From Nemertoderma westbladi (Eukaryota > Animalia > Xenacoelomorpha), in the NCBI GenBank assembly GCA_032718475.1, contig JAUCBJ010008367.1:43201-107200 (forward strand): a DNA stretch of 64,000 nucleotides. Reading direction: 5' to 3'. Positions 2-32,119 of this stretch are shown here, piece after piece (position 1 is the stretch's first letter; each line of letters opens with the position of its first letter). The notes below the pieces were generated by a model, which made no database searches, was not told the DNA's origin, and was given only the letters and a program-made list of their open reading frames with translations. A program made the position numbers and the translations under genes.

Positions 2-3000
2 AATAGTGAAGGAACCAAGCTTGTGTTGGACGCAATCGATGTGGATATGAGAGCTGCGAACCAAGCTAGATTTGATGAACGCCTCCGCATCACTAGAGTC
101 CAAGAAGAACAAGTGAAGAAAAAACGTATAGAAGACAGAAAGACAGCGGCAGTGGCAGCAGCAGTGGCAGCGGCAGAAGCAGAAAGAAAAGCGGCAGTGG
201 CAGCGGCAGAGGCAGAGGCAGAAGCGGAAAGAAAAGTGGCAGCGGCAGCAGCCGAAGCGGAAAGAAAGGCGGCAGTGGCAGCGGCAGAGGCAGTAGCAGA
301 AGCGCGGAGAGCTTCTGAAGAAACCACCCAATTAGAATTGGAAAACATTCAGGAGAATCAAGACTGCATAAATAAACAATTAACAGCTAGTAATATGCAG
401 ATGATGAGTCGATCTACTCCCAAAAGACAGGGATATACATCATCTGAGGAAGGCGATACCACCGATACTGAAGGCGGAGGAAATAGATCTCGTCTAAGCA
501 GACGTAGAAGAATGTCCCACCGTCAGAAATTGCCTGATTTGCCCCCAGCTGTTAGAAGGCAACTAACTAACACAAATTTAGGTAGTACAGAACCCACAGA
601 CCAAATAATTAAAATAGAAAGACTCCCTACTATAATAGATGAGCCTGAAATAATTAGGCCTGTTCCCGAAGCCACCCCTTCGGTGGTAGAGACACCTGTA
701 CTCCCTGAACCTACCTCTAAATTCCCTCTGCACAGCACTAAGCTATCTGTGCCCCACAGAACCACCCTTGAAAATGTTCATGTCCTGGACTCCGAGCGAA
801 ATATTAATGATTTGTCGCCCGTTGTCCCTCGTCCGCCCGCTACAACGTTGGCGGCTCCCGCTTCGGCGGTCGAGTGGGTGGATGAGAGACGACGGGGGAT
901 GGATCTTCTGCTCGGGCAAATGCAGGAGACTGTTCAGCAATTCAAGGGCACAGTAAGGGAAAGTAGGTTAGAGTTGCAAGAAGTGCAGCAAAGTATTGCG
1001 TTAGAACGCGATAAATTAGTAAATACACAAAGAGGTATACCACCACCCCCTGTAACAATGTGTCAACCTGTTAGGTCTGAAGTATCTCATGCGCAAGGTG
1101 TGGAGCCTACACGCATATATACTGCTAGCGAAGTAGAAACTCCTATAGTGAACCCTATTAAGGGTAATTATAGACCTGTTGATAATGATATTCCCTATAG
1201 ACCTGATCATAATCCGAGAAATTTATATACCGATAACTCGATATTAAATAACACGATGGCCCAAGAAAGTTTTACGCGTCAAATGGCTAGAACCGAAGCC
1301 CGTCAAGCGGTAAAGGTGGGAGAGATAGTCAAGTTCAATGGAGATGAGATGAAATGGTTACCTTTTAATGAATATTATAAAGATAACATACAGAACTCTG
1401 TACTATCTAATGGAGAGAAACTTAGATTCCTCATCGAGTGCTTGGAAGGATCTCCCAAGTTAATGGCGTTAAAGTTTATTGGACATCCAGACGGATTAAG
1501 ACAAGTTTGGGATACACTAAACATCAGGTATGGTAATAGGAATAACATACCTAAATATTTGTATGCAAAATTAGTAGCGCCCCGAAAGTTCATTAGCAGC
1601 GGGATAATAGAGTTTTCCGATGAGATTCAAGAGATCTGTAGACAATTAGATTGGTTAGGTAAGTCTCATGAATATCAGAGTTCTATGGTTATTGGAGCCG
1701 TGGCTTCTACTTTACCGAAGGGTGGAGTAGGTACACGCTGGGATAAGAAAGTGTTATATATGATGGAACAACAACGACGAGACCCTACCATGGCTGATCT
1801 TATGTCATTCTTAGATGGAGAAGTGAAATTACAGCTCCTAAAACAGTCCAGAGAGAAGACACCGGAAAACAAGGTAAGTGAGAAACCCGTTTCTAGGAGA
1901 AAGGTAACACCAGTGTGTTATACAGACGACGGCGAAAGCCAGACTTCTCAAGGAGAGGATAGCGGGAAAGACACTGAAAGATCTTATTATGTCAATAAAA
2001 TGCCTAAAGAACAGGTAAGTAAATTCAAGTCTCGAACCAATGACAGGAGAGAACAGGTAAGAAAAACTCCTCCTACGTCTCCTAAGAGAATTCAGGTGAG
2101 AAAGCCCGAAGAAAGAATGAGTGTGCACAATGTTATTCAAAATAAGGTAAGTAACATCAAACCGAAATGTGCGCTATGTGATGGGACCCACCGTTTGAAT
2201 ATGTGTGATGAATTCCTGAAGAAATCATTAACGGAGAGACGGGAAGTCATGTGGGATAAGCGGTTGTGTTATAATTGCCTCAGACAAGGACACCAACGGC
2301 GAACCTGTTACTCCGACACAAGGTGTGCAAAGTGCGGTGCGAAACATCATATCTTGTTGCACACTGAATTTGAGCGAAACAGCCAGAGTCAGGTAAGTGA
2401 TTCCGAACTACATGTCCAATTCAGTGATGTGAACGACACTGACCAAAGTTCTGAGATGGAAGGATTCTATACAGATGAATTCTCCGACGAAGATGAATCC
2501 TGTTACATGATAAATACCGCAGTGTATCGAGCACTTACGTATGAAAAAGACACAGACAGCGACCTCACCCTAACTACTTCTGATCGACAACCATCTTGGA
2601 AAGCGCCACCTTCCAATGTAGGAATCCGAGAATTTCCTGTAGTACAGGTAAGGGTCCACGGACCTAAAAGGAGTTATGTAGTGAACGCCCTCCTTGACTC
2701 CGGTAGTACAGGAACATTCATCGACAAAGAACTAGCCGAAGACATCTTTGCTGGACAACCCTGCCGAACTAAGCTAAACATGTCAGGAATTATGCAGGTT
2801 TGGAAATCTACAGTAATAGCGGATTATTATGTAGGTGCGTTGTCCACCCCCCAGGATGAACTAGGAGAACATAGTATAAGGTCAGTAAAAATGGTGGCGA
2901 TAAAGAACTTCGCTACCACCCAAGTGGAACCTTATAATTGGGATGAGGACGATTTCACCCAGCAGCTTGAAATACCTAGATTCAACACCGATTACCCTGG

Positions 3001-6000
3001 AGTGCAAATACTCATCGGTCAAAACGCGCATGAAGCGCTCGAGACATTGGAGAAACGGCCTGCTCAACCGCAACCACTACAAGCTTATGCGGGAAGAACT
3101 AGAGTGGGTTGGTACTTTACTGGCCCTTCCCGTAGAACTCTCATGGAAAGATTACCGAAAGACCAGGTATATCAAGTAAGAGAATGGGAAGTCGAGGGCA
3201 GTGAGTTAGACGATCCAACTGAGGGAACACCATACTCCTCAGATAATGACGATGTCCACCAACTTTTCGACGAGGAGAATACCATCGATCTCCTTAAGGA
3301 AAACGAGACTTGGCAAAACCAAGTGAACTTATGTCAGCTCCTTCTTCCATCAGAACGAGACGACTATAACGACGAGCTTAATGACGTCATTGAACGTTAT
3401 AATGCCAAGACTCGGGATGAACACGCCGTACGATTCTTTACTCAAGAGGCTGTAGAGCCCAATTCCTACGATAAGGCCCTATCGTTAGAGGAAGAAAGAG
3501 CCAAGCAGATCCAAGAGACAACTACACGTTTTCTTAAAGATCAAGGTAGATATGAGATCAGTCTACCTTTCCGAAAGCGAGAACCAAAGTTCGTAAACAA
3601 CAGACCCTTGGCGGAGAAAAGAATTGCTCAACTACATCGACGCCTTACGGCAAATTCTTCAGCTAAAGAAATGTATCAAACGCAGTTGAAGAAATTTATT
3701 AGCAAGGGATATGCGGAGCTAGTACCGGAAGAAACACCTATAACTGAGAGAACGTATTATTTAACTCACCATTACGTTCCCAAACCCGGTAAACCCCATG
3801 AGGTACGAGTGGTGTTTGACGGCTCCGCCCTCTATATGGGCCAATCCCTTAATTCCAAATTGTTACCCGGACCCAACTTACTCCAATCCTTGTTGGGAAT
3901 ACTCTTAAGATTAAGACAATATTCAATTGCTTTCGCCTCAGATATAGAAGGCATGTTCTTACAAGTCAAGGCGCTGGATAGGGATCGAGATAGCCAACGA
4001 TTTCTGTGGTGGCCTGAAGGAGACCTCAACCAGAAACCGGTGGAGTACTGGATGACCATCCAGGCTTTTGGGATAATCTCAAGCCCTTCAAACGCCTGTT
4101 CAGTGGTGCGCACCACTGCGGATGACAACCGAGACGCCTTCTCTAAAGAGGTGATTGACAACATCAAGCGGGATATATACATGGACGACAATCTAAAGTC
4201 CCTTCCATCAGTCGAAGAAGCCATCGATGTCGCTAAAGGAACGGTAGAGTGCTTAAAAAGAGGTGGATTTCGATTAACTAAATTCACCAGCAACTCCCGT
4301 GAGTTTCTGGAGTCGATCCCGGTAGAAGATCGAGGAGCGAAAGACCTGGATCTAATAAAAGATGATCTCCCAGAAACTAAGACCCTTGGTTTGAAATGGG
4401 ACACAGAAAGAGATATCCTGTTTTTCCAACTAAAACAGCGAGATAATCCAGTTCGGACTAAATGGATTTGTTTAAGTATCCTGAGCACTTATTTCGATCC
4501 ATTGGGATTTATTAGCCCAGTTATATTGATTGCTCGGAGTTTAGTACAACAAATGTGGCTTGAAAACCACTCATGGGACGATCCACTTAAGGGAGAATTA
4601 TTAAAGAAGTGGATGAAATGGGAAGATTCTCTACCAGCCATCGAGAACTTTATAATTTCCCGTTCATATTTTGGTCATGTTCTCCCTACGTATTCCTATC
4701 AACTCCATGTGTTTGGAGACGCCAGCGATATGGGAATAGGTATAGTAGCCTACCTAAGGGTGGAAACTCCGGACGGAATCAAAGTCGCCTTGGTTACCTC
4801 TAAGGCATTGATAAACAATAAGTTGAAAGTTCCTCGAGCGGAGTTAAAGGCGGCTCTATACGCTACAGCCATCGGCCGGAATGTAACAGAAAAGATCGAC
4901 TATCCACTGGAGAAAACTGTCTATTGGACCGACGCTTTACTCGTGTTGGAGTATATAACCAATGAAGTCTGTCAGTTCAGCGTCTTCGTTACCAACAGAG
5001 TAGCCATTATACTCAGTCATACAATGATGGATCAATGGAGACATTGCCCCGGAACGATTAATCCAGCAGACATCGCCTCCAGGGGAGCAACTCCACAAGA
5101 ACTGGTAGACACTCCAGACTGGTTAGGTGGACCCGACTTCCTCTACAAAGAAGAAGAAGAATGGCCTCCTCATCTTACTACCACAGAGATTAGACAGGCC
5201 AAGGGAGCAGAGAAAGTCAAACGTAAAACTCGGGCGAGTAAATCGAAGTTATTCAAACCTATGGTAGATCTGTCTGTACTACATACTTCCGGAGACGACG
5301 CTTTGGATCAGAAACCCACAGCCACAAATAAGCTTGTTGTGGAAATCCGTGAGAAGGATTGGAAATCTGGAATACCAGACGTCTCGCAAGGACTCTCACC
5401 TCTTCTGCAGAGAGCGATACATCACTACAGTTCCTGGAATCGGCTCTGTAAGGCCATTACATATTTAAAGAGATGTTTTCACCATCACTACTCCGGGATG
5501 AAGACCAAAGGTGATACCGCTCCAATAACATCAGTGCAGGTCCATGTTATTAAAGATCTTCCCAAATATAAGATACCCGACAGGTTTCTGAAGGAGAAGA
5601 TCAGTTATCAGGAACATGAAGAAACCAACAAGCAGATGCTGAGACTCCTGCAATGCTATGAGGATTCCGATAAGTATTTCCTGTTGTTGAGAAATCCGCA
5701 GATACGCTTAAGGGATCGTTTCTCTAGCACAATGATAGATGGGTTGATATGTGTTGGAGGAAGATTAACGAATGCTCCATTATCCTTTGACACTAAGTTT
5801 CCCATACTCATTAGAAATCTTGAGATACCAGTCAAGATGATTGTAGATGTTCACAGCAAACTTTATCATGCTGGTAGAGAACGAGTTCTTAGCGAAATTC
5901 GAACTCGCTATTATTTTTATAAACCCCGTAGAGCTCTGAACCAAGTTCTTAGGAACTGCATACCCTGTAGGAAAGCATTCAGTAGGCCTTTAACACAGCG

Positions 6001-7063
6001 AGAGGCAGAATTACCTAGGGAACGAGTAAGCTTCTATGAACCACCCTTTACTAATACCGGTGTAGATTTATTTGGCCCTATTGAAGTATATCGTGCTAGG
6101 ACTATAGTCAAGAGATGGTGTGTCATCTTTGTTTGTATGACTTGTAGAGCTATCCATCTCGATATGGTGAACGATTTATCTACCAACAGCTTTCTATTAA
6201 GCTTACGACGACAGATCGCTCGCTTTGGCACTAGTAACACGATGAGATCTGATAAGGGAACAAACTTCATTGGTGCCAATAATGAAATCAAAGCTTACGT
6301 CAAAGATTGGAACCAAAGACAGGTGGACGATCAGCTACGAGTAACAGCGTCTAGCTGGACCTTCAACGCCGCCGACGCCCCTTGGTGGGGAGGAAGTTGG
6401 GAGAGATTAATAAGAAGTGTGAAGACCGCATTTCACTTTATAGTGCCTTGCCGCGCGTATCTCACCGACGAACTTTTGCGGACGTTAATGGAGGAAATCG
6501 CCGCCTATCTCAATGAGAGACCGCTTATGCCAGTCTCATCGAGTCCCGATTCCCTGGAAGCGCTAACACCCGCGCACTTCCTACTGAAGAAACCTGTAGC
6601 CATGCTCCCACAATCGGAAATCACAGACGGAGACGAATACTGCCGGCAAACTTGGCAACTCATGCAGTTGTTATCCCGTCGTTTCGCTGACCATTTTGAA
6701 AAACATTATCTGCCCACGCTACAACTTCGAACTAAGTGGTTTGCGCAGCAAGAAAACGTCAGCGCTGGAGACATGGTTCTTATTGTGGATGTAGATCTTC
6801 CACGTAAGCGGTGGCAGACAGGTCGTATCATCGAGACTCACATCTCGGATGATGGTTTGGTGTGATCGGTAGAACTCGTCGTCATGCGACGTAACTTCAA
6901 GAAACCGGGAATTGTCTTCGAGACACAGCAGCTCAATCGCCCAGTTGGTCGCTTATGTTTACTGGAAAGAGACAGAGAACTCTCCGGAAACTATGGGAGG
7001 CAAGATACTCTTCCCACGACCACCTCCCTAATCCAACAAACATCTAGGGACTCCCCAACTTAA
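2..7063 (+). CDS. BEL/Pao Gag-Pol polyprotein (Gag, triple Cys/His box, protease, RT, RNase H, integrase); premature TGA at 6863-6865
   Basis: Frame is open from the window start. Motifs: KFNGD..W..F (BEL gag core), CALCDGTHRLNMC/CYNCLRQGHQRRTC/CAKCGAKHHILLH, ALLDSGS, YMDD, FGDAS/WTDA/NPADIASRG, H-H-CIPC, GVDLFGP/SDKGTNF/GGSWER. Copy 2 has CGA at the 6863 stop and continues to a stop matching 7061-7063. Confidence 0.93.
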
Positions 7064-8323
7064 CAACGGCTGGAGTGGGTGTATGACTATATTTTATATT
7101 TGTTTTTATTCTTTTATATTTATGTATGTATTATTATGTAATTTTATTATAATCGTTTTCTTTAATTTTATTTAGTAGATTGTTATTTTAGCGATTATTT
7201 AGTAGATTAGTGCAATATATATTCGCCGTTTATTACTTAATTACTTACATATTATATATTTAGTGCGACGGCGAGAAATAATCCTTTTCTCCTTCCTTAC
7301 TGTCCGTATTACCTTACAAATACGTAACTACAGTAAGATGAAATGTCCGTACTTATTAAAGTACAATAAAGCTCCTACTATATTTAAGTATTATTGGTAA
7401 GCAGAGTATTAGGAATGCAAAATTCAGATCCTCGTGTCTCGGCTAAACCAAGCTCTGGGTAGACCTTGGAAACAACTTGCCTCTTCTCACTGACATTGCT
7501 TCGTGCGATATTGCTCTCATACCGTATATTAAATAATACATATAGTAGCGTGATGTCCTTTTAACAGTAGCGTACAACGCAAAATAAATCTGTTAAACTC
7601 TTTGAGCATCTGTAATTCTAGTCGATTAAGATATCGCGGCACCCACCGATATACTTGAAAGACAAAATTTTAGAATCAGTGGTTAACGTCCCCAGACAAG
7701 TTCTGGAATAAACTGGTGCCCATCCTAAATATTAATTATTAATATTTACAAAATCTGTCAAATTTTAGATCCTTTAAAATTCTAGTCGATTAAGATATCG
7801 TAGCACTTACCGATACTCTTAAAAAGACAAAATTCCTAGAATCAAGCATCCCAGTCCCCAGACACGTTCTGGAATAAAATTACGTCTATTTAACATTAAA
7901 TAATAAAATTTACGGGAATAAATTTAAATTCATATATTTCAATGAATTTAATAAATTGTCATTTTTATACAATTTATAACATTCCCAAAATTCCATTAAT
8001 TAATAGATCATGGGAGCGGAGATTCACTCTATTAAGTGTATTTGTGTGCGAGAATCTCCAATATATAGTCAATAGCCGATAAAATTCATAAAATCACGTA
8101 TAGAGAGGATATTGACCATTAAAGAATTACTATTAAATAGCATCCCAGATCTGTATGCATGAGAATTACCCTAATTCTACCGCTAGCTTTCCATAATGTC
8201 ACCATGGCAACAACCACGCTAGAATTAGAAGTGAGTTAAAAGAACAATAGAAAGCTTGCCCCATTGAATAGCATAGGGAATAAATAGCGCACTGCTAGTA
8301 TCCAAGGATACATAATAAATAAA

Positions 8324-8658
8324 GTGACATTCTGGAAGGTACTGACTAATGGACAAATGGCCCGAATGTGTACAGTTTGTGGCAGTTGTGTTGAATTTGT
8401 GCGTTCATAGGTGAATGTTACTGCTAAAGTGTGTTTACAGTAGCTAGTCGCAATTGTGAAAGTAGCCCTAACTCTCCAGAAAGAACCTGAAGTACATCTA
8501 AGCCTTTGGGACGGACAGTGGAGTGACTTGTGCCGGTTATCGTTGTCGTTGTGTAGCTACATCGTTGGCGAAAGCACAGCGACGACGGTACATCGGCGCT
8601 GAGGATCTTGCACTGTCCGGGGGCAAAAGAGGGGTAGGCAGCGACGCCCGCTAGCCTA
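8324..8658 (+). ncRNA. Structured cis-RNA (IRES-like candidate) upstream of accessory ORF, copy 1
   Basis: GC-richer island in an AT-rich spacer. Nested stems 8512-8520/8611-8619, 8530-8537/8592-8599 and 8539-8554/8574-8589; hairpin 8635-8658; stem 8324-8332/8413-8421. Differences from copy 2 within these stems keep pairing. Confidence 0.6.
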
Positions 8659-8699
8659 ATATATAAACTCATTATAATATTGATAAACTCATAGCAGAT

Positions 8700-11600
8700 A
8701 TGACTGAGTTGATAGAAGATGATCTTGGTATCAGAGAGCGATATACTCTACCTATACAAGCGTTTGTCGATAGCTTGATACGCGGCGACGCTGGTCCAAC
8801 TACTACGGAGGATGATGGTCGTTATATCGAACCGCCAATGTCCCAGGAGCAACTTACGCGTGAATTGGACTATCGAAAGTTCACCGCTCGCTATACGCAT
8901 CGTAATGGTACGTATATGGACTTCTTAACTACTGGCCATCCTATCGATTTACACGATACGGACGATGTAGATACCGAAAGGGAAATGGTTTTATTTAAAT
9001 ATCATACCCAGCGGAGTCGGAACGATAAACCGAGAATAGAACACGAGAACTCTATTCGAAACAGACTCGAAAGGGAAGACGTTGAAGAGCCAGATAAACG
9101 CAGTGACTTCAACGATTATCTGGAATTCCTGAGAGAGACATATCTCAATATTGCCAGCCAACAAAATCTCGAAACTCGATATCCTCAAGGTAAACATCAT
9201 GATCCTATGATAGAACTCAAACGACTCTATTTCACTATGATGTATCTTACCGCCGATCGACCGGTACCTGTCATCCCAGATAGCTTCGAACAGATGGAGG
9301 AATATTGTAAAACTGGAGAACGATCACCCGCGTTTCCCCTGCAGGACGTGCGTCTTTGGTATTACTGCGATGAATGCCCTAGACCCAATCAGCAAACGGA
9401 AAGACATAAACATCCGCGGAGACGTTGCGCTAAACACAGTTTTACCCGATATACTTATGGGAGTTTCGAGCGAAACCTGTTCGACGTATCCCCTACGGTC
9501 GCTCGACTCAAACGATCCTTGAATAAACCGATGATCAGAGTTCCGGAATACTCGGTCAGACCTCCTCATTCCTCAGTTAGACCTCAGACTCTTGATCCTA
9601 ATAGTATCACGGATCCTCCCGAACTGTACTCACTGTTCAAAGATCTAGTGTTACCCGAACAGTTGATCGGTGGCACTCCGGTAGTGGGCTCGCTAGATAT
9701 TCGCCAACCCTACCTAGCCGGATTAGGACGCGGTCATCTAATATCGCCGTTTAACCCATACAACCATCCCGGCTTCACCCTCGATCCAACCCGTTACGGA
9801 AGTCGAAGAGAGCGTCGTACGAAATGAGTTAGACGCTATTCAGCAGAAAATCGGAAAGGGAACTTACGATTGTTTGGAGAAACGTAAATTGCAACAACAA
9901 GTCCAAGCGGTGAAGGAATTAGCTTTACCTCAGTTCGATAGAGAAATACAAAATCTCGAGGAGGACATCGAACGTGGACGAACCTACTCTTTACAAGAGT
10001 TCCTAGATGAGCGTCTACAACAACAAGCGGAGGAAAATCAGCTCGAGGAGAGACATATAGAACTAGATGAGAGAGAAGAAGCAGCTTTAGTCCAACCCGA
10101 AGCTCAAATCCTTATGACGGATCTCTACTCTAAAACCATCCTTCATCCCTCGATGGTTCCCCATTTCGGAGACAAACTCTTTGCGACGGTACAACCCCAA
10201 CCGGTTGATATCAACCTAAGATCTCGAGATCTTATCGCTGACGCTCCCATGTTGCAGCATCCGCCCATCGAAGCCGCTCGTGTCGATGGTATACTCGTTG
10301 AACCTCCGGACAATAGAGCGGATCTTGTCCGTCGCATGGTACACGATGTTAACATACGCGCTAGACCTTTACCGGACTCGTTTTATGGGATCAAAGATCA
10401 CCCTTATTACGTCAATCTAACACAATATTACATGGTAAAACCGGAAGATCCTACACATAGTTTGAGGTTTCTACCACTAATAAATCCTCTCGATCTTGTC
10501 GAACTCGAACAACTGCAGAAACATCTGGATCAGTTAGTTAAAGTAAACTCATTTCGAAAACCATATAATGTTTCCAGAATAGAGAAAGAAACAATACCTC
10601 CGTATAATCTTGATGGATTCATCAAAACTCGTTTAGTACACTGGAATCTTGACGTGTTATTCGAGGAGGAAAGAATACAACGATATGGAGATGTGGAAAC
10701 ATATACTACGCAATATTTAAAGTATAGAGACCTACCTAATGCTAGCGAATGCGCTACCTTGTGGCATCCAGTGGGAATGACCCTCGAAAACGCCACTAAA
10801 GAGTGGAACAAGACTCTTAACGTTATCGAGATGTATGGAGTTGTCACTTACGACAACGAAGGTAGCGTTCCGGTTGGAGAACTGGGAACTACGCGGATGA
10901 TACACATACGAGGACTCACTGGTTCTACCCACGTATTTACTCGAGCGTGTTCCGATGTGATTGATTATTCTTTTGAAACTCTTACTGAGACACAAAAGAA
11001 ACTCCGACATGGACAATTCGAACTCGCGCAGCGTTACGTCATCGACACCGAGCGCAAACCGGCCATGTGTATCGATGGATCGATGTTACCCCAGCCCGTG
11101 CTCGAGATGTTGTTTAACGAAAGAATCCTTAAAATCGGCTCCACTGTTTATGGAGACCTACAAAACGACTTTCGGAATATGGAGAACATTCCATACCCTT
11201 TCGTTGATACTCAGCTGATTGCTCCCTGGGCAGAAGGCTGAGATTTCTTCCGCACTATGTATGCCAATACACCCAGCGGCATTACTAAAGTACAACGAAC
11301 CTCCATCGGACATCTTGCCTTTCAAGAATACGGATGGAATTTCAAGGTTGGAAATCCTATAAATTACCAACAAGTATATGGAGACCATTATTCTCGTTTA
11401 TACTTTGATGGACCATTGACCGCACCTGGCGCCGTGTATAGCTTTATGAGTGTTCCACTTCGTCCCTCCTTAGCTATATACACGATCTTTGAAAACGCAG
11501 CACTTGCCGGTTGGCTAGCCGATGTGTGCAGTCGTACCATACGCGCCCATCCCTTAATACTTGGAACCAAACTCGCCAAGTTAGATGAACACAATAAATT

Positions 11601-12954
11601 CATCCGCTTCGAATGTTTCAGGCGCTTTCTGACTCCGTTCCGTAACGTTGATAGTCAGTTCAAGGACCGCGCTCTGACCAAACTCAGCCTAAGAGACTCA
11701 GCTGCGGAGAAGCTAATCAGCGCGGGATTTGCTCTCTTTCAGGACGTTTGTATACAGAACTTACATTCATCTGTTATACAAAGACCCCGAATACCCACAG
11801 GTTATTCTGTCGTGGAAGTTCAGACAATGGGTCCGCTTGCGGAGACAGCCGCACCTACCTCAGCTATGCAATTGGAAGACGAACCAATATGCTTAGAATC
11901 TGAAGCGATCCAGCCTACAGCGCCCCGGAGCAGCGATAACGATTACGTCTTGGAGTGGTATCAAGGTCCACAATGTCTCACCGCATACGATTATCGACAC
12001 GCCAACTATGTTTCTCGAAAACGTTGTCGATTATGCGCATCGAGAGACCATTTCACCCCTATGGACTCAGACGTACCCTGCTCCTATTTCCACGAACAAC
12101 CGATGATGGAAATCTATTGTGCGTATTGCAGACTTAATAACTCGCATATTTTTGCAGTCTGCCCCCAATTTATGACTCAATGCCACCACTGTCAACTTAA
12201 AGGACATGCCAGTTATAATTGCCCCTTTAACCGCGATTTAGAAAGCGTAGATGAGATGATTACCCTGCGCTACATCCGAGCTTGGGAAGCGAACGTGGAT
12301 TTACATTGTGAGTCCCGCCATCGCTATTACCCTGGACGCTCTTACGAGGGAGTTTACACGTTCCATCCTTATTTATTCGCGTCTGTTGAACAAAAAACAC
12401 GCACACCGAGTTACGAACTAATGAAGCGTGTTGGTGAGTGTATTTCCACCAAATTTGTTCGAAAATATCTCAGGAACGTCAATCCTAACGATATTACTTC
12501 ATACCATTTGATCAATTTCATCCGTCAAGACTCTGAGTATGGCGATTTATTTATCAACTCGCACCCTGAGTTACAGGAAGTATCTCGACGGCCCTACGAA
12601 TATCGAGCCCGAGAACGCGAGCTGGAAAGAACCATTAAACCGAGGAAGTTTCTCACCACTCACGGTCCACCTACCGCCATTGTCCAGACGACCCGTCAAG
12701 GACCCGTAGGAGCTGCTGTCCTAAGACGCGCCCTAAAGGCCGTTAGACATCGCTCCACTGAAGTTGATATCGATCAACCAGGTACCTCGACCGGCGGATA
12801 CACCGATCGTAATCCTAAACCTTCTGATGCAATTGTATTGCACCCTTCACCCAGGAGTTACAGCCCTCCTAGTAAAGTGTCTCGCCCCAAAGAGAAAAGG
12901 ACTCTTGCTAGCCTCAAAAAACTGCGTAAACGCCGTCCGCGTAAGAAAGACTAA
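8700..12954 (+). pseudogene. Accessory ORF of the BEL element (~1,417 aa reconstructed): DEDDy 3'-5' exonuclease-like domain, three CCHC knuckles, basic C-terminal tail; one frameshift (~9780) and one in-frame TGA (11239-11241)
   Basis: ORFs 9874-11241 and 11257-12954 share a frame across a single TGA. Copy 2 reads through the 9780 junction (IQPVTEVEE.VVRN.LD), and the third-position substitution pattern switches frame there. Motifs: VVTYDNEG (10840-10863), LPQPVLEMLFNERILKIG...GD...FVDTQLIA, PLRPSLAIYTIFE; knuckles at 12025-12222; KKLRKRRPRKKD. Confidence 0.75.
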
Positions 12955-13032
12955 CTGTTTAGAGTATTTTTATATTTTAGAAACTGTGATTTGTTATATT
13001 TTATAGACTTAAATCCCATTTTCTGGGAGCGG

Positions 13033-14212
13033 TGTAAAGGCTTTTGCGGAATTAGCCGGTTATTTTCCCCGTAAAGTACTCTGTAGTTGGTTTAACAGGC
13101 ATAAAAGGCCGTGTCCTTACTGTACTGGTGTTTTAGAGGACATAAAAGCCATTTCTTCTGTATGTGTACTTTAGCGGACATAATTAGCAATTCTATGACG
13201 CAATGCGCCGGATCCTCTTGAAACAGTGTAGCTACCATGACGACGGCTAACAGCTGATGCTGTACACGTGGAGCTTTTTCTTTGTTCTCTGTTCCTTCTT
13301 TGTTCGGTCGACCAATCAGAGCGTTTTTTGCCTCTGCGTTAGAGATTGTATATAGAAACTCGTGGAGTTGAGTCAGTATGTGATTTTGTCCACAGCCTAG
13401 AACACCGGCTTTGGAACCTCCGTGTTTCAGTCTTTAGCCCAACATTAGTAGGCTTAATTATAGAACGTATATCTGTTATCATATCAATTCATAACATAAA
13501 AAACGAACCATAACTCACATATCATATCAATTTATACCTTAACACTTGTACTGCTATTTACTGTCGGTTATTCATTATATTTGTTGATGGAATATTATAT
13601 TTGGAATACTGATAAATAATCAGACACCCCGATCTTCTTGATATACTAAAGGTTAGAGAGACCGGTTACATATAACGATTGCGACTTACATTAAGTGGTT
13701 TGAAGTGAATCTAATGCTATTTCATAGGCCCTACATGTATTGTCTGTTGTTCTCTTTATATGTGACTAAAATTAGTGAAGGTCGGCAGATCAGTGTGCAG
13801 CATTGTGCAGTATTGTGTATGATTGTGACTGATAACAAAGCATCTCCTAAAGAATGCGCCATATACGTGAATCTATAGCCATCCCGTTGTGTCTAGTTTA
13901 AGTCATAACTCTGTTTACATATTTAGAGCGCCACGTCCTAAAGGAACTGTTAATATTTCCCGAAAGTGAATAATATTTGTCAGAGATTATATATATTACG
14001 ATCAGTCGAATAATACAGTAGGCCTACCCCGCAATACGGTTAGGCTTCCGAATCCAGTCTCCCGGGTATATCCAGCGGGTGAATGATCGCGCATAGACTG
14101 GCTTCGGCTAATGTAGTGTATCAAATACTTGTCATAGGCTAAAGACGATCTATTATCTAGAAGACATCCCAATTTGGCAGGTTAAACTGCTAAAGGTCTG
14201 AAAGCGCGAACA
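13033..14212 (+). repeat. 3' LTR of BEL copy 1 (1180 bp)
   Basis: Starts TGTAAAGGC after the PPT and ends GCGCGAACA; homologous to 16262-17465 and 30916-32119 but clearly diverged from them. Confidence 0.92.
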
Positions 14213-14806
14213 CCAGGCCTGAAGTTCAGTATTCTACTTTTGCTTATAGCAGAACGACATATTTTGCCATTAACATCTGGTTTAAAATGCGGAAGAATTA
14301 TAGTTAATTACTGTAGTACTGGAGTACACTCAAAGTACTGAAACACCGTGAAACACTGAATTGTACCGATTTACTGATGTCCTTGTATATATTCTTATTT
14401 TTGATGATGATATGGAGATGACGCTATATTAACTACTCTTATATCGCAACCTATCATTATTTATATTGGAAGAGGTAAGCTGTGGTTGGTAAATTAGCAG
14501 TCCCGGTTCACAATTAAGTGGTGTGCATGGGAATATATGTTATTTATTAGCCCCAACGTGCGTCAGCCTACCAAACTCCTTATTCATGTATCAATTTGCC
14601 TCAAGTCAGTAAATCAGTGTATTTCAGTCGGGTCCATAATACCCCGCCCCTAAAGGGTGTGCAGACTATGATTCTTGTTCACAATATGTTGTAATTTCCA
14701 TAAGAGATACGCCTGTTTGTTATCTAGAGCGCAACATCTGAAATGGAACTGTTAATACTATCCTGTATGTGAGCATAGCTGTTAGGAATTATATTCACAC
14801 TTATAT
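14213..14806 (+). mobile_element. Highly diverged remnant of a related BEL LTR
   Basis: Patches align in order to the LTR, e.g. ...ATTAAGTGGT...TATTT.ATAGCCC (~14510-14555) and CTGTTT...TAGAGCGC.AC.TC..AA.GGAACTGTTAATA (~14712-14757). Confidence 0.5.
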
Positions 14807-16195
14807 TTACTACTACTACTAGGTCGAGCGAAATCGGACATTGGAAATGAGATCCTTCCAGGCTTCCCGATTCTCCATAGTTGTCGCAATTTCATTTCTC
14901 CCAAGTTCAGTATCCCTTTCAAGTTGATCTATATATGTTATGGCCGGTCGTCCACGACTACGCTTTCCATGAGTTGGTTGCCAGAGAAGTAGATCTGGTA
15001 TGACCTCGTCTTTACTTCACCAGCAGTGCCCACTGAATCTTAATCTGCGTTCACGGAGGGTGGTTGATACAGGTGGTATTGTACCCTAAAGCTTGGCGTT
15101 TGTCATGTGTTGTCTCCAGCTGATGTTTAGGGCTTCCCTTAGTAGTCTTGTGTAACAACCATCAATTCGTTGTTCAAATGATTTAGTCAGTGTTCAGGGG
15201 TCACCCCCGTATAAAAATACACTTTCCACTGTGGCTCGAAAGAATTAGTCTTCAGGTGCCTGGAGAGATCTGAGTTCCAGATGGTATCCATTTTTGATAG
15301 AGCTACCCAAGCCTTTGCTTTCCTAACTTCTATGTCCTTTTTGCTACTCTCTATCCATGATCCAAGGTACTGGAAGTCATCGACCTTCCTTAGTTGATTA
15401 TTATCAATGGTTGTCAAGTCAAGAATGCTTTCTTGAAGTCAACAAAAGTCATCAATGCGGGGAGATTCTTTGACTTAATTCCTTCAATCAGTCTCCGTAG
15501 TGCAAGTATCTGAGCTATTGTTGATCTACTTGGTCGAAATCCGTTTTGGCTCTTACGCAGTAGTTTCTCTATGTGAGCCCTAATCCTATATAGAATCATT
15601 TTATTGTATATTTTGGCAGCTACCATAAGCAGACAGATCCCACGATAGTTTGTTGGTATGCCGATGTCTCCTTTCTTGGGGAGAGGCTTTAGTTGACCTT
15701 TAGTCCAAATTGGTGGTGGCTCTCTCAAAAGGCGCAACTTTGCACAACTTTTCCGACCAGATACCTCATTTACAGTTTGCCAGGTAAGTCTTGATTGTTG
15801 CTGTATGTGAGCAGTTGTAATTGCTTCAGTTTTATCCTGTATGTACTTTTCCTGGCTGATGTTGTAGGTCAATTTAAGATCGTCCTTAGATCGTTTCTCA
15901 ACCTTGTTAATGTTTTCGGTTGTTGGTTGTTCGGTTTTAACTTTGTAGGCTATCTCAAGATCTTCTCTCTTACAAGTAACCTCAGAGTTTTGCCATGGCA
16001 CATACTGTTTTCGTTTGGGTTTCTGGGGGATATGCCTCTTAGCTGATTCCTTGTGGGCTGTTATTATATTCTGGTATATTGAATTGGTGGATTGGTCTTC
16101 ATCCATTGACTGAAGTGCTTCAAAGCGGTTTTGAACTTCTGCTGTATAAGCATCCTTTACAGCATTGTCAGTTCTGAGTTTCTCCCACTTATATT
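14807..16195 (-). mobile_element. RTE-like non-LTR retrotransposon fragment, internally deleted
   Basis: LPKKGD..PTNYRGICLL, QNGFRPSRST, FVDFKKAF and FQYLGSWI in minus-strand ORFs; (TAC)n tail at 14808-14821. Confidence 0.85.
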
Positions 16196-16261
16196 TAAAG
16201 GGGCACAATTTTGGTAAGCCGATATATTTCAGGCTCCCTAACGGGTCATATGCCGCACTAT

Positions 16262-17465
16262 TGTAAAGGCTTTTGCGGATATAACTAGTCATTTTCCCCG
16301 CAAAGTACTCTGTAGGTGTTTTAGCGGACATAAAAAGCCGTTTTTCTTACTGTGTAGGTGTTTTAGTGGACATAAAAAGCCATTTTTCTGTATGTGTACT
16401 TTAGCGGATATAACAAGCCATTTTATGCCGCAATACGCCAAAATACTCTTAATACAGTGTGGCTTAGATGACGAAATCTATCAGCTGATTTTGATGTCGA
16501 TGTGGAGCTTTCTTAACTCTCTTTGTTCAGCTCACTCGATCAATCAGAGCGATTTTCATTTTATTTGCACAGAAGCCTCCGGGAAATCGCGCAATGCATG
16601 ATGGTCTTTGTTTACCTTTTCCTGAGCCCAGAACATCGGCTTTGGAATTATTCTTAGTTTCAGACTTTAGCCAAACATTCGACGGCTTTGATTATAGGAA
16701 CGTATAACTGTTATCAGCAAACCACTCAAGTTACGCAAAACAGCCCATATCATACTATACATACCTTTCACCGCATTATTTTACTGCTATTTACTGTCGG
16801 TTATTAATTGTTATAAGTTGGTGGATATGTTGTTATATTTGGAGAATATCGATAAATAATCATAAAACCCCAATCTTCTTGATATACTGAAGGTAAGAGG
16901 GACCAGTTACCTGTAGCAACTGCGACTTACATTTATAGTGGTTTTGGAGTGAATTGAATGCTATTTCATAATCCCTACATGTGTCAGTTGCTATTCTCCT
17001 TATATATGATCAAATTTAGTGAAGGTCGGCAGATCAGTGTGCAGCAGTGTGCGGTAGTGTACATGAGTGTGACAGATAACAAAGCATTTCCTAAAGAATG
17101 CGCTTTATACGAAAATCATTAGCCATCCCGTTGTGTTTAGTGTAAGTCATAACTCTGTTTACATACTTAGAGCGCCACGTCCTAAAGGAACTGTTAATAT
17201 TTCCCGAAAGTAAATAATATTTGTCAGAGATTATATATTAACGATCAATCGAATAGTACAGTAAGTCTACACCGCAATAAGTTCAGAGCCTCCGAATCCA
17301 GTCTCCCTTAACTGTGGGTGAATGGTCGCGCATAGGCTGGCTTCGGCTAATGTAACTTTATATCTTATATGCAACAAATACTTGTTATAGGCTAAAGTCG
17401 ATTTATAAACTAGAAGACACCTAAAATTAGCGGGTTAAACTGCTAAAGGTCTAAAAGCGCGAACA
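16262..17465 (+). repeat. 5' LTR of BEL copy 2
   Basis: Direct repeat of 30916-32119; four ~40-50-bp-spaced GCGGAYATAA-type subrepeats in the first 160 bp. Confidence 0.96.
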
Positions 17466-17476
17466 ATAACAGTTAT
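17466..17476 (+). promoter_or_regulatory. Non-tRNA primer-binding-site candidate (ATAACAGTTAT), complementary to LTR 16704-16714
   Basis: No TGG-starting tRNA PBS follows the LTR; the exact reverse complement ATAACTGTTAT is present within the LTR. Confidence 0.5.
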
Positions 17477-19068
17477 TGATTTTTTTCCTTTATTGCACAG
17501 TAGACAATAAATACAGTTTACTATTGTTCTGGTAAGAACAATAACAGTTATTCAGGTTTCTTTATTGAAACGTAGGCAATAAAGTCGAAAGTACCGGTCT
17601 ACCGGTAACCTGTAGGCCTGACTGCCTAACCACCCGAACCGGTACTTACAGCAGTATAGGTACAGCAGTATTATTAGATTTTGATAATTATATACCGGTA
17701 GGTCTTGATATTTAATCAGGGACGGCCGCCCTGGTTTTTTATTGGGATTTTACTTATTTCTGTCAGTTTTATTTATCTGTAAGTTAATATTGAGCAGAAG
17801 GCATGTAAGCCTGCTCAGATTGTACAAATAGTTTGTAGGCTGGATTGTTGTCTGGCTGTTGTCAGGTCCGAAGAGATTGCAGTGTGTGTAGAGTGTATGT
17901 CCGATAAAATACTAGTTAGGAAGGTAGGGGCATCCAGTGTTGTAAGGTAAATCCCCTCCGAAAGAATAAGTCGTACTACTCGGTTAGAACGCATACTAAC
18001 TAACCATTTCGGAGTCTGCATATACTGTAGTTTATTTAGGCTTGATAGTAGTCTGTCAGCATTTGGTTTGTATTTTGTTTGTGTAGTCTGTACGGGTAGC
18101 GTAATATTTATTATTCAGAGTTTATGCGATTATTCGCAACATACACCACCCCAAGTTTATTCCTACAGTAATTGTGCTTGTTATACATACCGTTATAGTT
18201 AAATTAACCCCGGTACTACATCAAGGCTGTTTGGCGTAAGTAAAGACTGGTGATTTTATGCTCTAGTCACTCCAGCAGATACCGTGGTTCTTTTAGCTGT
18301 ACAAGTATTTTTAACTGCTGGTTATTTGTTGTATAAGTACTTGTACCTAATTTAGGGTTTAGTGTACAGTGCTTTCCGAAGGAAATTAGTGTGTAGGCAG
18401 TATATTTGTGTTGTAAAGTGGTTAATAGGCACGTTAGCTATGGTAGGCTGCGGTAATTAACTTCTAGGTAGGGACATTCCGGGTACATAATGTAGTACTT
18501 ATAGAGCTGTAAAGCTAGAGACTATAAGTCGTCAGACGGTGGTATTTTCTTATCTAGACAATGCAATATATTTACTACTGCTTTATTATTTTCAAATACC
18601 GTAGTTTCCTGTCCGTTTGTAATAACCAGAAATTTCTAACCCCTTGTTAGGCTGGTTTGTAGATTTCCTGTAAAATTACCCTAAAATTTGTACGTGTGAT
18701 TTTTTTTGTGTTTATTTAGAGATTGTAATCTCACCCCTTAATTGTACGTAATTTGTAGTAATAAGTAACTTAGTAAATTAGAATTATTTGTTTTAGTGTC
18801 CAATAAGTAGCACTCCACTGAGAGCGTTCAGCTTCTGTGAAGTGACTCCTTACCTAGAAATAATAACATTTATTTCAAATATTGTAACAAAACCCATTAA
18901 ACGGGTATATATATATTATAAATCAACTCAAACCGATTTATAAAATAGTAGGCCTGTCATCCATCAATTAGGTCTTAATATCAGTTGGACTACTGCTTAA
19001 ATAACGGTAATAAAGTAACGTAAAGTAACCCTAAAATTCAGAAATTCAGTTATTCTAAAATAATTGAC

Positions 19069-19370
19069 ATACCGGTATTTACGATAGGCTTATTATATTT
19101 ATTTCTATAAATTTAAGCTGAAATTATATACCGGTATTCTGTAATTAATTCTAGTCTATAATTATACTTATATATGCTATAATGTAAGCTGTATACCGGT
19201 ATTCACGGTAGGCTTATTATATATTTATATATATTTGCGCTGAAATTATATACCGGTATTCTGTGACAAGCCCTAGTCTGTAATAATACATATATATATA
19301 CTATAAGTGTATACCGGTATTCTAATATATTGTATATATATCACATTACACTGAGTAACGATATCGGTAA
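19069..19370. repeat. ~60-bp-period array with palindromic ATACCGGTAT core in the BEL 5' leader
   Basis: Cores at 19069, 19128, 19193, 19250 and 19311, plus a degenerate one at 19361; spacers alternate A/B, giving a ~122-bp dimer. Confidence 0.85.
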
Positions 19371-19458
19371 TTAATTACTAGGCTTATAGTTGATACTGAA
19401 TTACTAGACTTGCTTTAACTGTAGTTCTAGCAGTAGGCATTCAACTGTACAAACAAAC

Positions 19459-22400
19459 ATGGCTGACATAAAGCAAAACCTGTCAGACAGTCTCCTAGAT
19501 ACAACAATCTGTGATCCAGATAGGAGTGCGGAACGTTTGAGACCGAAGTTCAACTCCCCTCCTACTGTAAGAAAGGTCATCCCTCCAGTAGTAGTATCAG
19601 ACCCTAGGCTAGTCAAACACCGTAGGTCCATCATAGGCACTCGGCCTCAAGTCAAGCGGGACCAAGAGGCAGCTGTTAAACAACAGCAACACTCGAGCTG
19701 ATAACTTATTTCTCAGCAGCCCGATAGCTCCAGTAGTTCACATACTGTAGAGTTGACACCCGAGCGTGGAGCAAAGATGGCAGAAGCAGTTTATTCGGAT
19801 CCACTTCTCATTCTTCCTGAAGCTGTACTTACTAGAGTATTAATTGTGATGGAGGAACATCAAATGGATTGGGCGAGAAGTAAGCGATCGACCAAGGACA
19901 GTTATGCGGGATACACGAAGGAGGAACTGAAGTCTATTGTTGAGACGCAATGGAATTTCCCCGTCCCGGACTCCCGTTTAACTTATCGGAAGCTGCCTGG
20001 GAGGACTTATACAGGATGGGAGTGGTAAGGGACACTAGAGTTCCAGCTGTGTGGAAGAGGTCGGCAGCAGGATATGTACAGGGATTCTTCAGCTCTTTGG
20101 AGCGATTAGAGGAACAACTGTTTCAACAACCCCAAGGACCTCAAGAGCAGGGAGAGCTGCTTTATCAAGTTCGAGAACGTATCCTAAGAATCAGACTAAT
20201 CCTATCGGCCTTTGAGGAAGCCTCGAAAAGAAGCCAAGACACGTCGTTGCAAGTTGCCGTAAAGACTTGGTTCCAGCGGGTGGGTCTCAAAGTTCAAGGA
20301 ACGGCCCAGTGGAAAATTCAGCTGGCTGAGCGCTCAACCCACGGAGAATCAACAGACGCTACCTTTTCTCAAGTGGAAAGCGAAGCGACATTGGAGAAAC
20401 CTCAGAAGAAGGACGCTATTGACATCTATCTGTTGGACTATCAACGATTTATTGGTGACAAAGAGTTGAGGAGACGGCTGGCTGGACTTCACCCTACTAG
20501 TGAAGGAGCCAAATTTGTGTTAGACGCATTAGATGCGGAAATGTTAGTCGCAGAGCAGGCTAAATTTGATGAAAGCATCCTCCTCGCTAGGGAACAGGAA
20601 GAACAATTAAAGAAAAAACGGATAGAAGACAGAAAGGTAGCAACAGCGGCAGTGGCAGAAGTTCAAAGAAAGGCGGCAGCTGCAGCGGCAGCGGCAGAAG
20701 CTGAAAGAAAAGTGGCAGCGGCAGAGGCAGAGGCTGAGGCAGCGGCAGCGGCTGAGGCAGCGGAAAGAAAAGCGGCAGCTGCAACGGCAGAAGCTGAAAG
20801 AAAGGTAGCAGCGGCAGAAGCGGAAAGAAAGGCGGCAGAGGCAGTGGTAGAAGCAGAACGGAAAGCATCTGAAGAGACAATCCAACTAGAGTTGGAAAAT
20901 CTTCAAGAGAAGCAAGATTACATCAATAAACAAAGAACAGCTAAGTATATGCAGATGATAAGTCGATCTACTCCCAAGAGACAGGGATTTACATCATCTG
21001 TTGAAGGTGATACCACAGATCCTGAAGGCGGAGGAAATAGATCTCGTTCCAGCGGACGTAGAAGAACGCCTCACCATCAGAAATTGCCTAATTTGCCCCC
21101 AGCTGTGAGAAGGCAACTAGCTAGTGCAGACTTAGGTAGTACAGAACCCACAGACCAAATTATTAGAATAGAAAGACTCCCTACTATAGTGGATGAGCCT
21201 GAAATAATTAGGCCTGTTCTCGAAACCACCCCCTCTGTGATGGAGACCCCTGTCCTTCCAGAACCTAACTCTAAATTCCCTTTGCACAGTACTAAACTAC
21301 CTGTATCCAGTAGGACAGTTCCTCAGACAACTCCGGTCCTGGACGCCGAGCGAGACATTAACAATTTGTCACCCGTCGTCCCTCGTCTACCCGCTACTAT
21401 GTTGGCGGCTCCCGCTTCGGCGGTAGAGTGGGTGGATGAGCGACGGCGGGGGATGGATATTCTCCTCAGGCAGATGGAGGAGAATCAGGCACGCTCCTCC
21501 CAGCAGGTCTGAGAGTTGGAGGGGACTGTTCAACAGTTAAGGGGAACAGTAAGAGAGAGTAGGTTAGAATTGCAGGAAGTGCAGCAGAGTATCGCGTTAG
21601 AACGCGATAAGTTAGTAAATCTACAAAAGGGTATACCACCACCCTCTGTAATAATGTGTCCACCTGTTATGTCTGTAATATTTCATGCGCAAGTTGTGGA
21701 GCCTACACGCATCTATACTGCTAGCGAAGTAGAAACTCCTATAATAAACCCCATTAAGGGTAACGATAAACCTGTTGATAATGATATTCCATATAGACCT
21801 GATAATAATCCGAGAAATTTATATACCGATAACTCGATATTAAATAATACGATGGCCCAAGAAAGTTTTACGTGTCAAATGGCTAGAACCGAAGCCCGTC
21901 AAGCGGTAAAGGTGGGAGAGATCGTCAAGTTCAATGGAGATGAGATGAAATGGTTACCTTTTAATGAATATTATAAAGATAACATACAGAACTCTGTGCT
22001 ATCTAACGGAGAGAAACTTAGATTCCTCATCGAGTGCTTGGAAGGATCTCCCAAGTTAATGGCGTTAAAGTTTATTGGACATCCAGATGGATTAAGACAA
22101 GTTTGGGATACACTAAACATCAGGTATGGTAATTGGAATAACATAGCTAGGTATTTGTATGCGAAATTGGTAGCGCCCCGAAAGTTTCTTAGCAGTGGGA
22201 TTATAGAATTTTCCGATGAGATCCAGGAGATTTGTAGACAATTAGATTGGCTAGGTAAGTCTCATGAATATCAGAGTTCTATGGTTATTGGAGCTGTAGC
22301 ATCTACCTTGCCAAAGGGTGGAGTGGGTACTCGTTGGGACAAAAGAGTTCTATATATGATGGAACAACAACGAAGAGACCCTACCATGGCTGATCTCATG

Positions 22401-29363: not shown

Positions 29364-30837
29364 ATGACTGAGTTGATAGAAGATGATCTTGGTATCAAGG
29401 AGCGATATACTCTACCGTTGCAAGCGTTTGTTGATAGCTTAATTCGCGGCGACGCTAGTCAACCTACTACGGAGGACGAAGGCCGTTATATCGAACCGCC
29501 AATGTCAAAGGAACAACTCACGCGTGAATTGGACTATAGAAAATTCACCGCTCGCTATACGCATCGTAATGGTACGCATATAGACTTCTTAACTACTGGT
29601 CATCCTATCGATTTACACGATACGGATGATGTCGACACCGAAAGGGAAATGGTCCTATTTAAATATCATACCCAGCGGAGTCGGAACGATAAACTGAGAA
29701 TCGAATGCGAAAATTCTATTCGAAATCGACTCGAAAGAGAAGACGTTAAAGAACCGGATAAACGCAGTGACTCCAACGTATATTTGGAATTCTTGAGAGA
29801 AACATTATAAAACTGAAGAAAGATCACCCGCGTTTCCCCTACAAGACGTGCGTCTTTGGTATTATCGCGATGAATGCCCAAGACCCAACCAACAAACGGA
29901 AAGACGTAAACATCCGCGGAGACGTTGCTCTAAACACAGTTTTACTCGCTATATTTACGAGAGTTTCGAGCGAAACTTGTCCGATGTATCACCTACGCTC
30001 GCTCGACTCAAACGATCCTTAAATAAACCTATGATCAGAGTTCCGGAATACTCGGTCAGGCCTCCTCACTCCCTGGTGAGACCTCAGACTCTTGATCCTA
30101 ATAGTATGACGGATCCTCCCGAACTGTACTCACTGTTTAAAGATCTAGTGTTACCCGAACTTTTAGTCGGTGGCACTCCGGTTGTGGGCTCCCTAAATAT
30201 TCGCCCATCTTACCTCGCCGGATTGGGACGCGGACATATATATCGCCATTCAACCGTATCATCGTCCCGGTTTAACCCGATACAACCTGTCACCGAGGTG
30301 GAGGAGAGAGTTGTACGAAACGCGTTGGACACTATTCGTCAAAAGATCGGAAAAGGAACCTACAATTGTTTAGCGAAACGTAAATTGCAGCAGCAAGTCC
30401 AAGCGGTAAACGAATTAGCTTTATCACAGTTCGATCAGGAAATCCAGAATCTCTAAGAAGATATCGAACTTGGACGACTCTACTTTCTGCAAGAGTTTTG
30501 GACGAATGCTTTCAACAACAAGCGGAGGAAAATCAGCTCGAGGAGAAGCATATCGATTCCGATAGAGCCCGAGAACCCGTCAGGGACCAGTAAGAGCTGC
30601 TGTCTTAAAACGCGCTCTCAAGGTTGTTCGACCTCGTTCCACTGAGGTTGATACCGATCAACGGATACCTCGACTGGCGGATACACCGACCATAATCCTA
30701 AACCTTCCAATGCAATTGTATTGCACCCTTCACCCAGGAGTTATAGCCCTCCTAGTAAAGTGGCTCGCCCCAAAGAGAAAAGGACTCTTGCTAGCCTCAA
30801 AAAACTGCGTAAATGCCGTCCACGCAAGAAAGACTAA
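29364..30837 (+). pseudogene. Internally deleted accessory ORF of copy 2 (lacks exonuclease and knuckles)
   Basis: Matches copy 1 at 8700-~9140, ~9303-~10060, ~12601-12615 and ~12691-12954; about 2.8 kb is missing. Confidence 0.9.
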
Positions 30838-30915
30838 CTGTTTAGAGTATTTTTATATTTTAGAAACTGTGATTTTTTATATTTTATAGAATTAAATCCC
30901 ATTTTCTGGGAGCGG

Positions 30916-32119
30916 TGTAAAGGCTTTTGCGGATATAACTAGTCATTTTCCCCACAAAGTACTCTGTAGGTATTTTAGCGGACATAAAAAGCCGTTTTTC
31001 TTACTGTGTAGGTGTTTTAGTGGACATAAAAAGCCATTTTTCTGTATGTGTACTTTAGCGGACATAACAAGCCATTTTATGCCGCAATACGCCAAAATAC
31101 TCTTAATACAGTGTGGCTTAGATGACGAAATCTATCAGCTGATTTTGATGTCGATGTGGAGCTTTCGTAACTCTCTTTGTTCAGCTCACTTGACCAATCA
31201 GAGCGATTTTCATTTTATTTGCACAGAAGCCTCCGGGAAATCGCGCAATGCATGACGGTCTTTGTTTACCTTTTCCTGAGCCCAGAACATCGGCTTTGGA
31301 ATTATTCTTAGTTTCAGACTTTAGCCAAACATTCGACGGCTTTGATTATAGGAACGTATAACTGTTATCAGCAAACCACTAAAGTTACGCAAAACAGCCC
31401 ATATCATACTATACATACCTTTCACCGCATTATTTTACTGCTATTTACTGTCGGTTATTAATTGTTATAAGTTGGTGGATATGTTGTTATATTTGGAGAA
31501 TATCGATAAATAATCATAAAACCCCAATCTTCTTGATATACTGAAGGTAAGAGGGACCAGTTACCTGTAGCAACTGCGACTTACATTTATAGTGGTTTTG
31601 GAGTGAATTGAATGCTATTTCATAATCCCTACATGTGTCAGTTACTATTCTCCTTATATATGATCAAATTTAGTGAAGGTCGGCAGATCAGTGTGCAGCA
31701 GTGTGCGGAAGTGTACATGAGTGTGACAGATAACAAAGCATTTCCTAAAGAATGCGCTTTATACGAAAATCATTAGCCATCCCGTTGTGTTTAGTGTAAG
31801 TCATAACTCTGTTTACATACTTAGAGCGCCACGTCCTAAAGGAACTGTTAATATTTCCCGAAAGTAAATAATATTTGTCAGAGATTATATATTAACGATC
31901 AATCGAATAGTACAGTAAGTCTACACCGCAATAAGGTCAGAGCCTCCGAATCCAGTCTCCCTTAACTGTGGGTGAATGGTCGCGCATAGGCTGGCTTCGG
32001 CTAATGTTACTTTATATCTTATATGCATCAAATACTTGTTATAGGCTAAAGTCGATTTATAAACTAGAAGACACCTAAAATTAGCGGGTTAAACTGCTAA
32101 AGGTCTAAAAGTGCGAACA
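30916..32119 (+). repeat. 3' LTR of BEL copy 2
   Basis: TG...CA, follows PPT CTGGGAGCGG, ~99% identical to the 5' LTR. Confidence 0.96.

Follow-up and report, generated by a model that had tools for sequence, protein, structure and literature searches.

The window analysed here, a stretch of 64,000 nucleotides of Nemertoderma westbladi contig JAUCBJ010008367.1, contains two copies of one BEL/Pao retrotransposon family. In copy 1, an accessory gene of approximately 1,417 codons lies on the sense strand between pol and the 3′ long terminal repeat (LTR). This third gene is a real gene inside the BEL/Pao element, and it is under purifying selection. Judged by its sequence motifs, its product is likely an RNA-binding 3′–5′ exonuclease of the EXD2/WRN type. 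One possible hypothesis for its function, which we place first among five but hold only tentatively, is that the conserved gene, broken in copy 1, encodes an exonuclease whose trimming of the RNA of the element itself would yield a primer for reverse transcriptase (RT).

A third gene under purifying selection in a BEL/Pao element

The assignment of the host element to BEL/Pao was borne out by Gag and by a Pol with the order protease (PR), RT, ribonuclease H (RH) and integrase (IN), together with BEL/Pao-specific domains (Table 1). A BEL integrase motif was used to fetch 117 loci, of which 115 matched the pol sequence, the best at about 28% identity. Gag-pol is 89% identical between the two copies, which diverge by 10% and more. 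The 5′ end of the copy 1 gag-pol open reading frame (ORF) lies beyond the window edge, and its stop comes earlier than that of copy 2. Copy 2 (16262–32119, 15.9 kb) is flanked by a five-base target duplication with one mismatch, and its paired LTRs differ at 14 of 1,200 positions. Because copy 2 lacks 2.8 kb relative to copy 1, the full-length element is estimated at about 18.6 kb. Belpaoviridae genomes are 4.2–10 kb in size (PMC8742986). The element resembles this family in its gag-PR-RT-RH-IN order, its Pao-family RNase H, and its purine tract and 1.2-kb TG...CA LTRs (1,180 and 1,204 bases, within the family's 0.2–1.2 kb) (PMC8742986; available part of PMC3118150). It differs in its size of about 18.6 kb, in a third gene that is not the env-like one expected of the family, if any, and in the absence of a tRNA-type primer site from copy 2 (PMC8742986). 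In copy 2, gag is broken; its apparent start follows an AT-rich 5′ leader of about 2 kb (17466–19460) that carries a duplication of about 125 bases (19069–19322).

The initial annotation had joined three copy 1 ORFs (8667–9827, with an ATG at 8700; 9742–11241; and 11242–12954) into one protein of about 1,400 amino acids by way of one frameshift near 9780 and one stop codon. This reconstruction held, giving about 360 plus 1,057 codons that end 78 bases before the 3′ LTR. As that annotation had also noted, copy 2 crosses the frameshift site in one frame, while carrying three small gaps of its own; the three listed contigs of one sequencing run that span the site each show one gap relative to the window. 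The in-frame stop is private to copy 1, because almost all contig depth differs from the window there. The claim that both copies carry the gene proved true of the gene ends only. Copy 2 is deleted for the bases corresponding to 9142–9296 and 10062–12690 of copy 1, a loss overlooked earlier that removes the whole exonuclease-like part and the zinc knuckles.

The N-terminal part matched no family in Pfam and related profile searches, and its recognition in the Atlas was below threshold. It contains a single C-x2-C-x16-C-x2-H pattern at 9366–9440. The spacer between pol and the accessory gene is 91% alike in copy 2. TATA-like letters near 8660 and an AG shortly upstream of the ATG at 8700 may represent a candidate internal promoter or splice acceptor, and we infer that the gene would be expressed from a separate or spliced transcript. 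The spacer also holds, at 7586–7913, a pair of copies of about 164 bases that are 75% alike and recur in copy 2. An Rfam search of positions 6800–20000 gave no match.

The ratio of nonsynonymous to synonymous substitution rates (dN/dS) between copies 1 and 2 is 0.11 and 0.19 (both in the N-terminal part) and 0.20 in three flanking segments of the accessory gene, compared with 0.09 for gag, 0.055 for RT/RH and 0.09 for IN. A value of 0.06 for 9790–10061 was unreliable (dS 1.4) and is excluded from this range. For the interval 10780–11560, contigs were compared with the window, and the 40 best-supported of 162 differences were considered; 39 were classified after a row at the stop was dropped. 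Thirty of the 39 are synonymous, against an expected 30% (p 3e-9), or 30 of 34 when five changes private to copy 1 are left out; the ratio is a rough one, as the rows were not drawn at random and several runs have them in common. In the list for the whole stretch, 16 of 29 differences are synonymous. None of the listed differences changes the D, E, D, Y or E residues of the motifs described below, and two are silent within Asp codons. Taken together, the contigs of four runs leave none of the interval's 29 bins uncovered, and no indel is listed. Thus dN/dS, the check that the initial annotation had suggested, is not near 1, and both the flanks and the synonymous excess indicate purifying selection. 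A run labelled as a different organism also yielded contigs across the full length of the accessory gene; their depth is low, and most are 83–95% alike.

The exonuclease-like domain and the zinc knuckles

The candidate catalytic residues are D (10852), E (10858), D (11155), Y (11479) and E (11491), all in copy 1 and all where the initial annotation had located them. When 1.84 billion proteins were searched exhaustively, P0004 (648 amino acids, E 1.5e-5, 30% identity), a singleton encoded on a 9,449-base ENA contig, was the sole match. P0004 shows the motif order of the window protein: D-x-E, the LP...K.G...D block, a following D, PL...Y-x3-E and three knuckles. The single Pfam match of its domain is PF01612 (E 0.042), and a profile of the window protein and P0004 found human EXD2 as one of two PDB matches (E 1.5). 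The top three Atlas clusters, which serve as leads only, are all PF01612 (0.86, 0.77 and 0.77); CCHC knuckles occur in 61% of the members of the first cluster, and the second is EXD1-like. For the exonuclease-like part of the window protein itself, the Atlas gave no result.

We also compared the domain with 88 bacterial PF01612-type exonucleases, picked by their Exo II motif (the six that were checked are all PF01612). The hhalign values were 94% and 92%, whereas 25 shuffles reached at most 3.5% and three control regions stayed below 1%. With a 20-column profile, the Exo I block ranked first of 1,051 windows in the window protein and first of 629 in P0004; with nine columns, it ranked second and first, respectively. 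The Exo II block ranked first in both proteins, a result that is partly circular. Taken together, the motifs and profile matches make it likely that the domain adopts the RNase H-like fold of EXD2/WRN-type, PF01612-like proteins. Like the cellular PF01612 exonucleases EXD2, WRN, mut-7 and EXD1, it has Exo I and Exo II with the LP...L.D..I.K.G...D signature; unlike them, it has about 45 extra residues ahead of Exo II, a longer stretch between Exo II and Exo III, Y-x3-E, and no significant direct match. The combination of exonuclease and knuckles does exist in cells, in a mostly euglenozoan Atlas cluster of 57 members with PF01612 and zf-CCHC.

Several results weigh against this assignment. Unbiased searches yielded no significant exonuclease family match, and the window protein alone matched no exonuclease family in Pfam or NCBIfam. 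The hhalign value falls to 1.7% once the selected Exo II block is masked. In the Exo III scan, the putative motif ranked third in P0004 but did not reach the top three in the window protein. The fourth acidic site is D in 88 of 88 references and E in both the window protein and P0004, and AlphaFold2 run on two-sequence alignments gave no confident fold (predicted local distance difference test scores of 29 and 34). In word-indexed protein searches, the window domain and the pair had no match and P0004 matched only itself. Scans for related loci in viral, metagenome and prokaryote genomes found no relatives, and tblastn against phages and plasmids gave matches of E 6–10 only. A PHROGs "exonuclease" match (E 0.25) was not used, and an ordered-motif shuffle test (0 of 5,000) was post hoc and has been discounted.

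The earlier designation of the domain as a DEDDy exonuclease therefore stands in part. A PF01612-like domain is likely by way of P0004 and weak profile matches, while Exo III scores poorly and no confident fold was obtained. Because both proteins carry Y-x3-E in place of the Y-x3-D of Exo III, we call the domain DEDDy-like and not canonical DEDDy. The E at the last acidic site, to which the initial annotation had drawn attention, is indeed present; it is not decay of copy 1, because the remote homolog carries E too. We infer that the enzyme could be active despite this residue.

The three knuckles (CX2CX4HX9C at 12025, CX2CX5HX4C at 12118 and CX2CX4HX4C at 12181) and the basic tail were found in copy 1 as previously described. 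CCHC knuckles in array point to RNA binding. The resemblance of the last two to Air1/2-ZCCHC7, also proposed earlier, is real in spacing (CX2CX5H/CX2CX4H) but weak otherwise: Air2 matched with E 0.8, and the P0004 knuckles matched HIV nucleocapsid (E 1e-4) better than Air (E 0.064). The view that the gene is not env was upheld, in that no 19-residue window of the accessory protein exceeds a hydropathy of 1.6 (maximum 1.19), as a membrane helix would.

Known transposon-borne exonucleases

A precedent missed by the initial annotation is found in bdelloid rotifers, in which the LTR retrotransposons Juno and Vesta and the Athena/Terminon retroelements carry a DEDDy ORF3 whose motif is DEED and whose activity is unproven (Rodriguez et al. 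2017, PMC5408684; here and below, statements from this paper refer to its available part). Like rotifer ORF3, the gene described here is a non-env gene past pol on the same strand, of putative DEDDy type, with no transmembrane helix and one D-to-E change. Unlike it, this gene resides in a BEL/Pao host, encodes about 1,400 amino acids, and has a long N-terminal part of no known family and three knuckles. The D-to-E substitution falls at the fourth acidic position here (DEDE), in contrast to DEED in rotifers. Purifying selection is clear here, whereas the variation in rotifer ORF3s that was tested (env, GDSL) appeared neutral. No rotifer sequence was among the protein-search matches for the window domain, P0004 or the pair. 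Dada DNA transposons likewise bear a DEDDy exonuclease, but there the domain is inserted in a DDE transposase and keeps all four DEDD residues (available part of PMC3706591).

The literature searched held no exonuclease in a BEL/Pao element, Repbase and supplements being outside its scope, and a Repbase entry may exist; the available parts of PMC6431247, PMC3706591 and PMC6338049 contain no BEL/Pao case. The cassette had thus not been described for a BEL family in that literature, a possibility that the initial annotation had raised. No related third gene was seen at the 117 BEL-integrase-motif loci, which is uninformative since, of the 115 with an integrase match, no more than 8 reach 2.5 kb further downstream.

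A candidate self-primer and possible roles of the putative nuclease

No tRNA-type primer site, starting with TGG, was found after the 5′ LTR of copy 2, the one copy in which it was sought; an 18-base tRNA-Arg or tRNA-Gly site is typical of Belpaoviridae but not strictly defining. Instead, the 11 bases at this position are a perfect complement of a segment within the LTR (Table 1). Pairing at 11 of 11 bases was reached by 3 of 3,000 dinucleotide shuffles, and by 8 of 3,000 when the start was allowed to slip by three. With the polarity that the pairing has, the LTR segment could act as a primer for copying the end of the LTR. The 11-mer, close to a palindrome, occurs a second time at 17541; the copy 1 LTR differs from it at one place, and the copy 1 leader lies outside the window. 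The complement suggests that the element primes itself and that the nuclease would find a substrate there. It is similar in its 11-base length, its location in the element's own LTR and its priming polarity to that of the Tf1/sushi group. Tf1 is a gypsy element whose primer is freed by RNase H, and to our knowledge it self-primes without an accessory nuclease.

Because the 11 bases after the 5′ LTR pair with the LTR, the idea of primer trimming gains a candidate substrate. One could envision that the knuckles grip the element's own RNA, that the nuclease degrades the single-stranded 3′ end and stalls at the 11-base-pair duplex, and that the stalled trimming would leave a 3′-OH for RT. Copies without the exonuclease-like domain would rely on enzyme supplied in trans. 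Processing of structured RNA 3′ ends is known for RNase D-class DEDDy enzymes (PMC5408684). The most specific form of this proposal, namely that an 18-kb BEL/Pao lineage has dropped its tRNA primer and uses a knuckle-tethered DEDE exonuclease, shared with deleted copies, to trim its RNA to the 11-base self-duplex, we consider rather unlikely to hold in every part. Priming of this kind is undescribed for any LTR element in the literature searched, in which self-priming of BEL/Pao itself was not a search subject; the available part of PMC3118150 mentions neither "exonuclease" nor "self-priming". Further points on the negative side concern the element. The pairing is known from one copy, and the nearness of the LTR primer segment to the RNA 3′ end is an assumption that may not hold. 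Contigs join across the exonuclease-like domain in five listed ways, some of which perhaps reflect one old deletion, and copy 2 is without the domain though its LTRs are young.

This repeated loss would also fit a product that acts in trans as an active counter-silencing nuclease, one that binds, degrades or mis-trims the host's PIWI-interacting RNAs (piRNAs), small interfering RNAs or their precursors. We rank this scenario second, as possible but doubtful. The family is an abundant one (one run gave 58,615 contigs), the second Atlas cluster, a lead only at 0.77, is similar to EXD1 of piRNA biogenesis, and a silencing role has been entertained for the rotifer gene (PMC5408684). That gene, however, did not clearly track copy number (PMC5408684), and the sequence holds no tie to PIWI proteins.

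An unlikely alternative, third in our ranking, is that the fold is catalytically weak or dead and functions as an RNA-binding scaffold or decoy in the manner of EXD1 and Maelstrom. The E found in both proteins at a site that is D in every reference, and the poor Exo III score, would be explained in this way, and dead DEDD derivatives do take part in piRNA biogenesis (PMC5408684). On the other hand, the Tyr has been retained along with four acidic residues at 30% identity and among copies, as a metal site predicts, and the rotifer versions have a D-to-E change too (DEED) (PMC5408684). It is less probable still that the motifs are a chance resemblance within a conserved protein of another fold. 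The missing Pfam and NCBIfam matches, the masked hhalign comparison and the unconfident models speak for it; yet every lead on the homolog pair, whether from Pfam, the PDB or the Atlas, points to PF01612-type proteins, and the Exo I and Exo II blocks come out top, and in order, in two proteins that are only 30% identical. Least probable, by our estimate, is a nuclease that proofreads or trims complementary DNA ends of the 18.6-kb element: although DEDDy enzymes act on single-stranded DNA as well (PMC5408684), 3′ end processing has been proposed for the DEDDy domains of Dada transposases (available part of PMC3706591) and the basic tail suggests nuclear import, the three CCHC knuckles point to RNA, the accessory protein is separate from RT, and the copies differ by 10% and more.

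Table 1. Positions of the features of the two BEL/Pao copies in the window
Feature	Position	Strand	Remarks
Copy 1 gag-pol ORF	2..6865	+	Pfam DUF1759, Peptidase_A17 (E 1.4e-34), Integrase_H2C2, DUF5641
Spacer between pol and accessory gene	6866..8699	+	1,834 bases; plus-strand ORFs all ≤65 codons
Accessory gene, N-terminal part	8700..9779	+	Frameshift near 9780; no known family
Accessory gene, main part	9781..12954	+	One in-frame stop, 11239–11241
Exo I-like block	10804..10863	+	Helix, strand, D-x-E at 10852–10860; top-ranked among 1,051 windows in a PF01612-type profile scan
Exo II-like block	11086..11163	+	LP..(L)..N..I.KIG...D, D at 11155; EXD2 6k17, E 1.5
Putative Exo III	11455..11493	+	PL-x6-Y-x3-E; common to homolog P0004
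Three CCHC-type zinc knuckles	12025..12222	+	Pfam zf-CCHC_3, E 3e-4
Basic C-terminal tail	12916..12951	+	
Purine-rich tract	13025..13032	+	5′ of copy 1 3′ LTR
Copy 1 3′ LTR	13033..14212	+	TG...CA, 1,180 bases
Copy 2 5′ LTR	16262..17465	+	TG...CA, 1,204 bases
LTR segment complementary to primer site	16704..16714, also 31358–31368	+	Candidate self-primer
First 11 bases after copy 2 5′ LTR	17466..17476	+	No TGG start; perfect complement of 16704–16714
Copy 2 remnant of accessory gene	29364..30840	+	Without exonuclease-like part and knuckles
Copy 2 3′ LTR	30916..32119	+	

Elsewhere in the window, a gypsy-type element at 35560–40068 has two identical 272-base LTRs and a pol with stops and frame changes; its 5′ LTR is likewise not followed by TGG. 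An intronless ORF of 413 amino acids for a Cys-loop ligand-gated ion channel (52498–53739; Pfam Neur_chan_LBD, E 2e-38) has repeats around it. The stretches 57642–59102, 60638–61831, 41700–42440 and 46220–46610 comprise a non-LTR RT fragment and several short copies, a MULE transposase remnant and tandem repeats of about 163 bases.

If the exonuclease assignment is correct, DEDDy exonucleases carried by retrotransposons occur in BEL/Pao elements as well as in those of rotifers, and these results add clear purifying selection, which was absent from the rotifer study (PMC5408684). They also nearly double the quoted size range of BEL/Pao. With a candidate self-primer in the same element, a testable job can be offered for enigmatic third genes; if true, primer maturation or counter-silencing by such a product would bear on retrotransposon replication or on the evasion of small RNAs.

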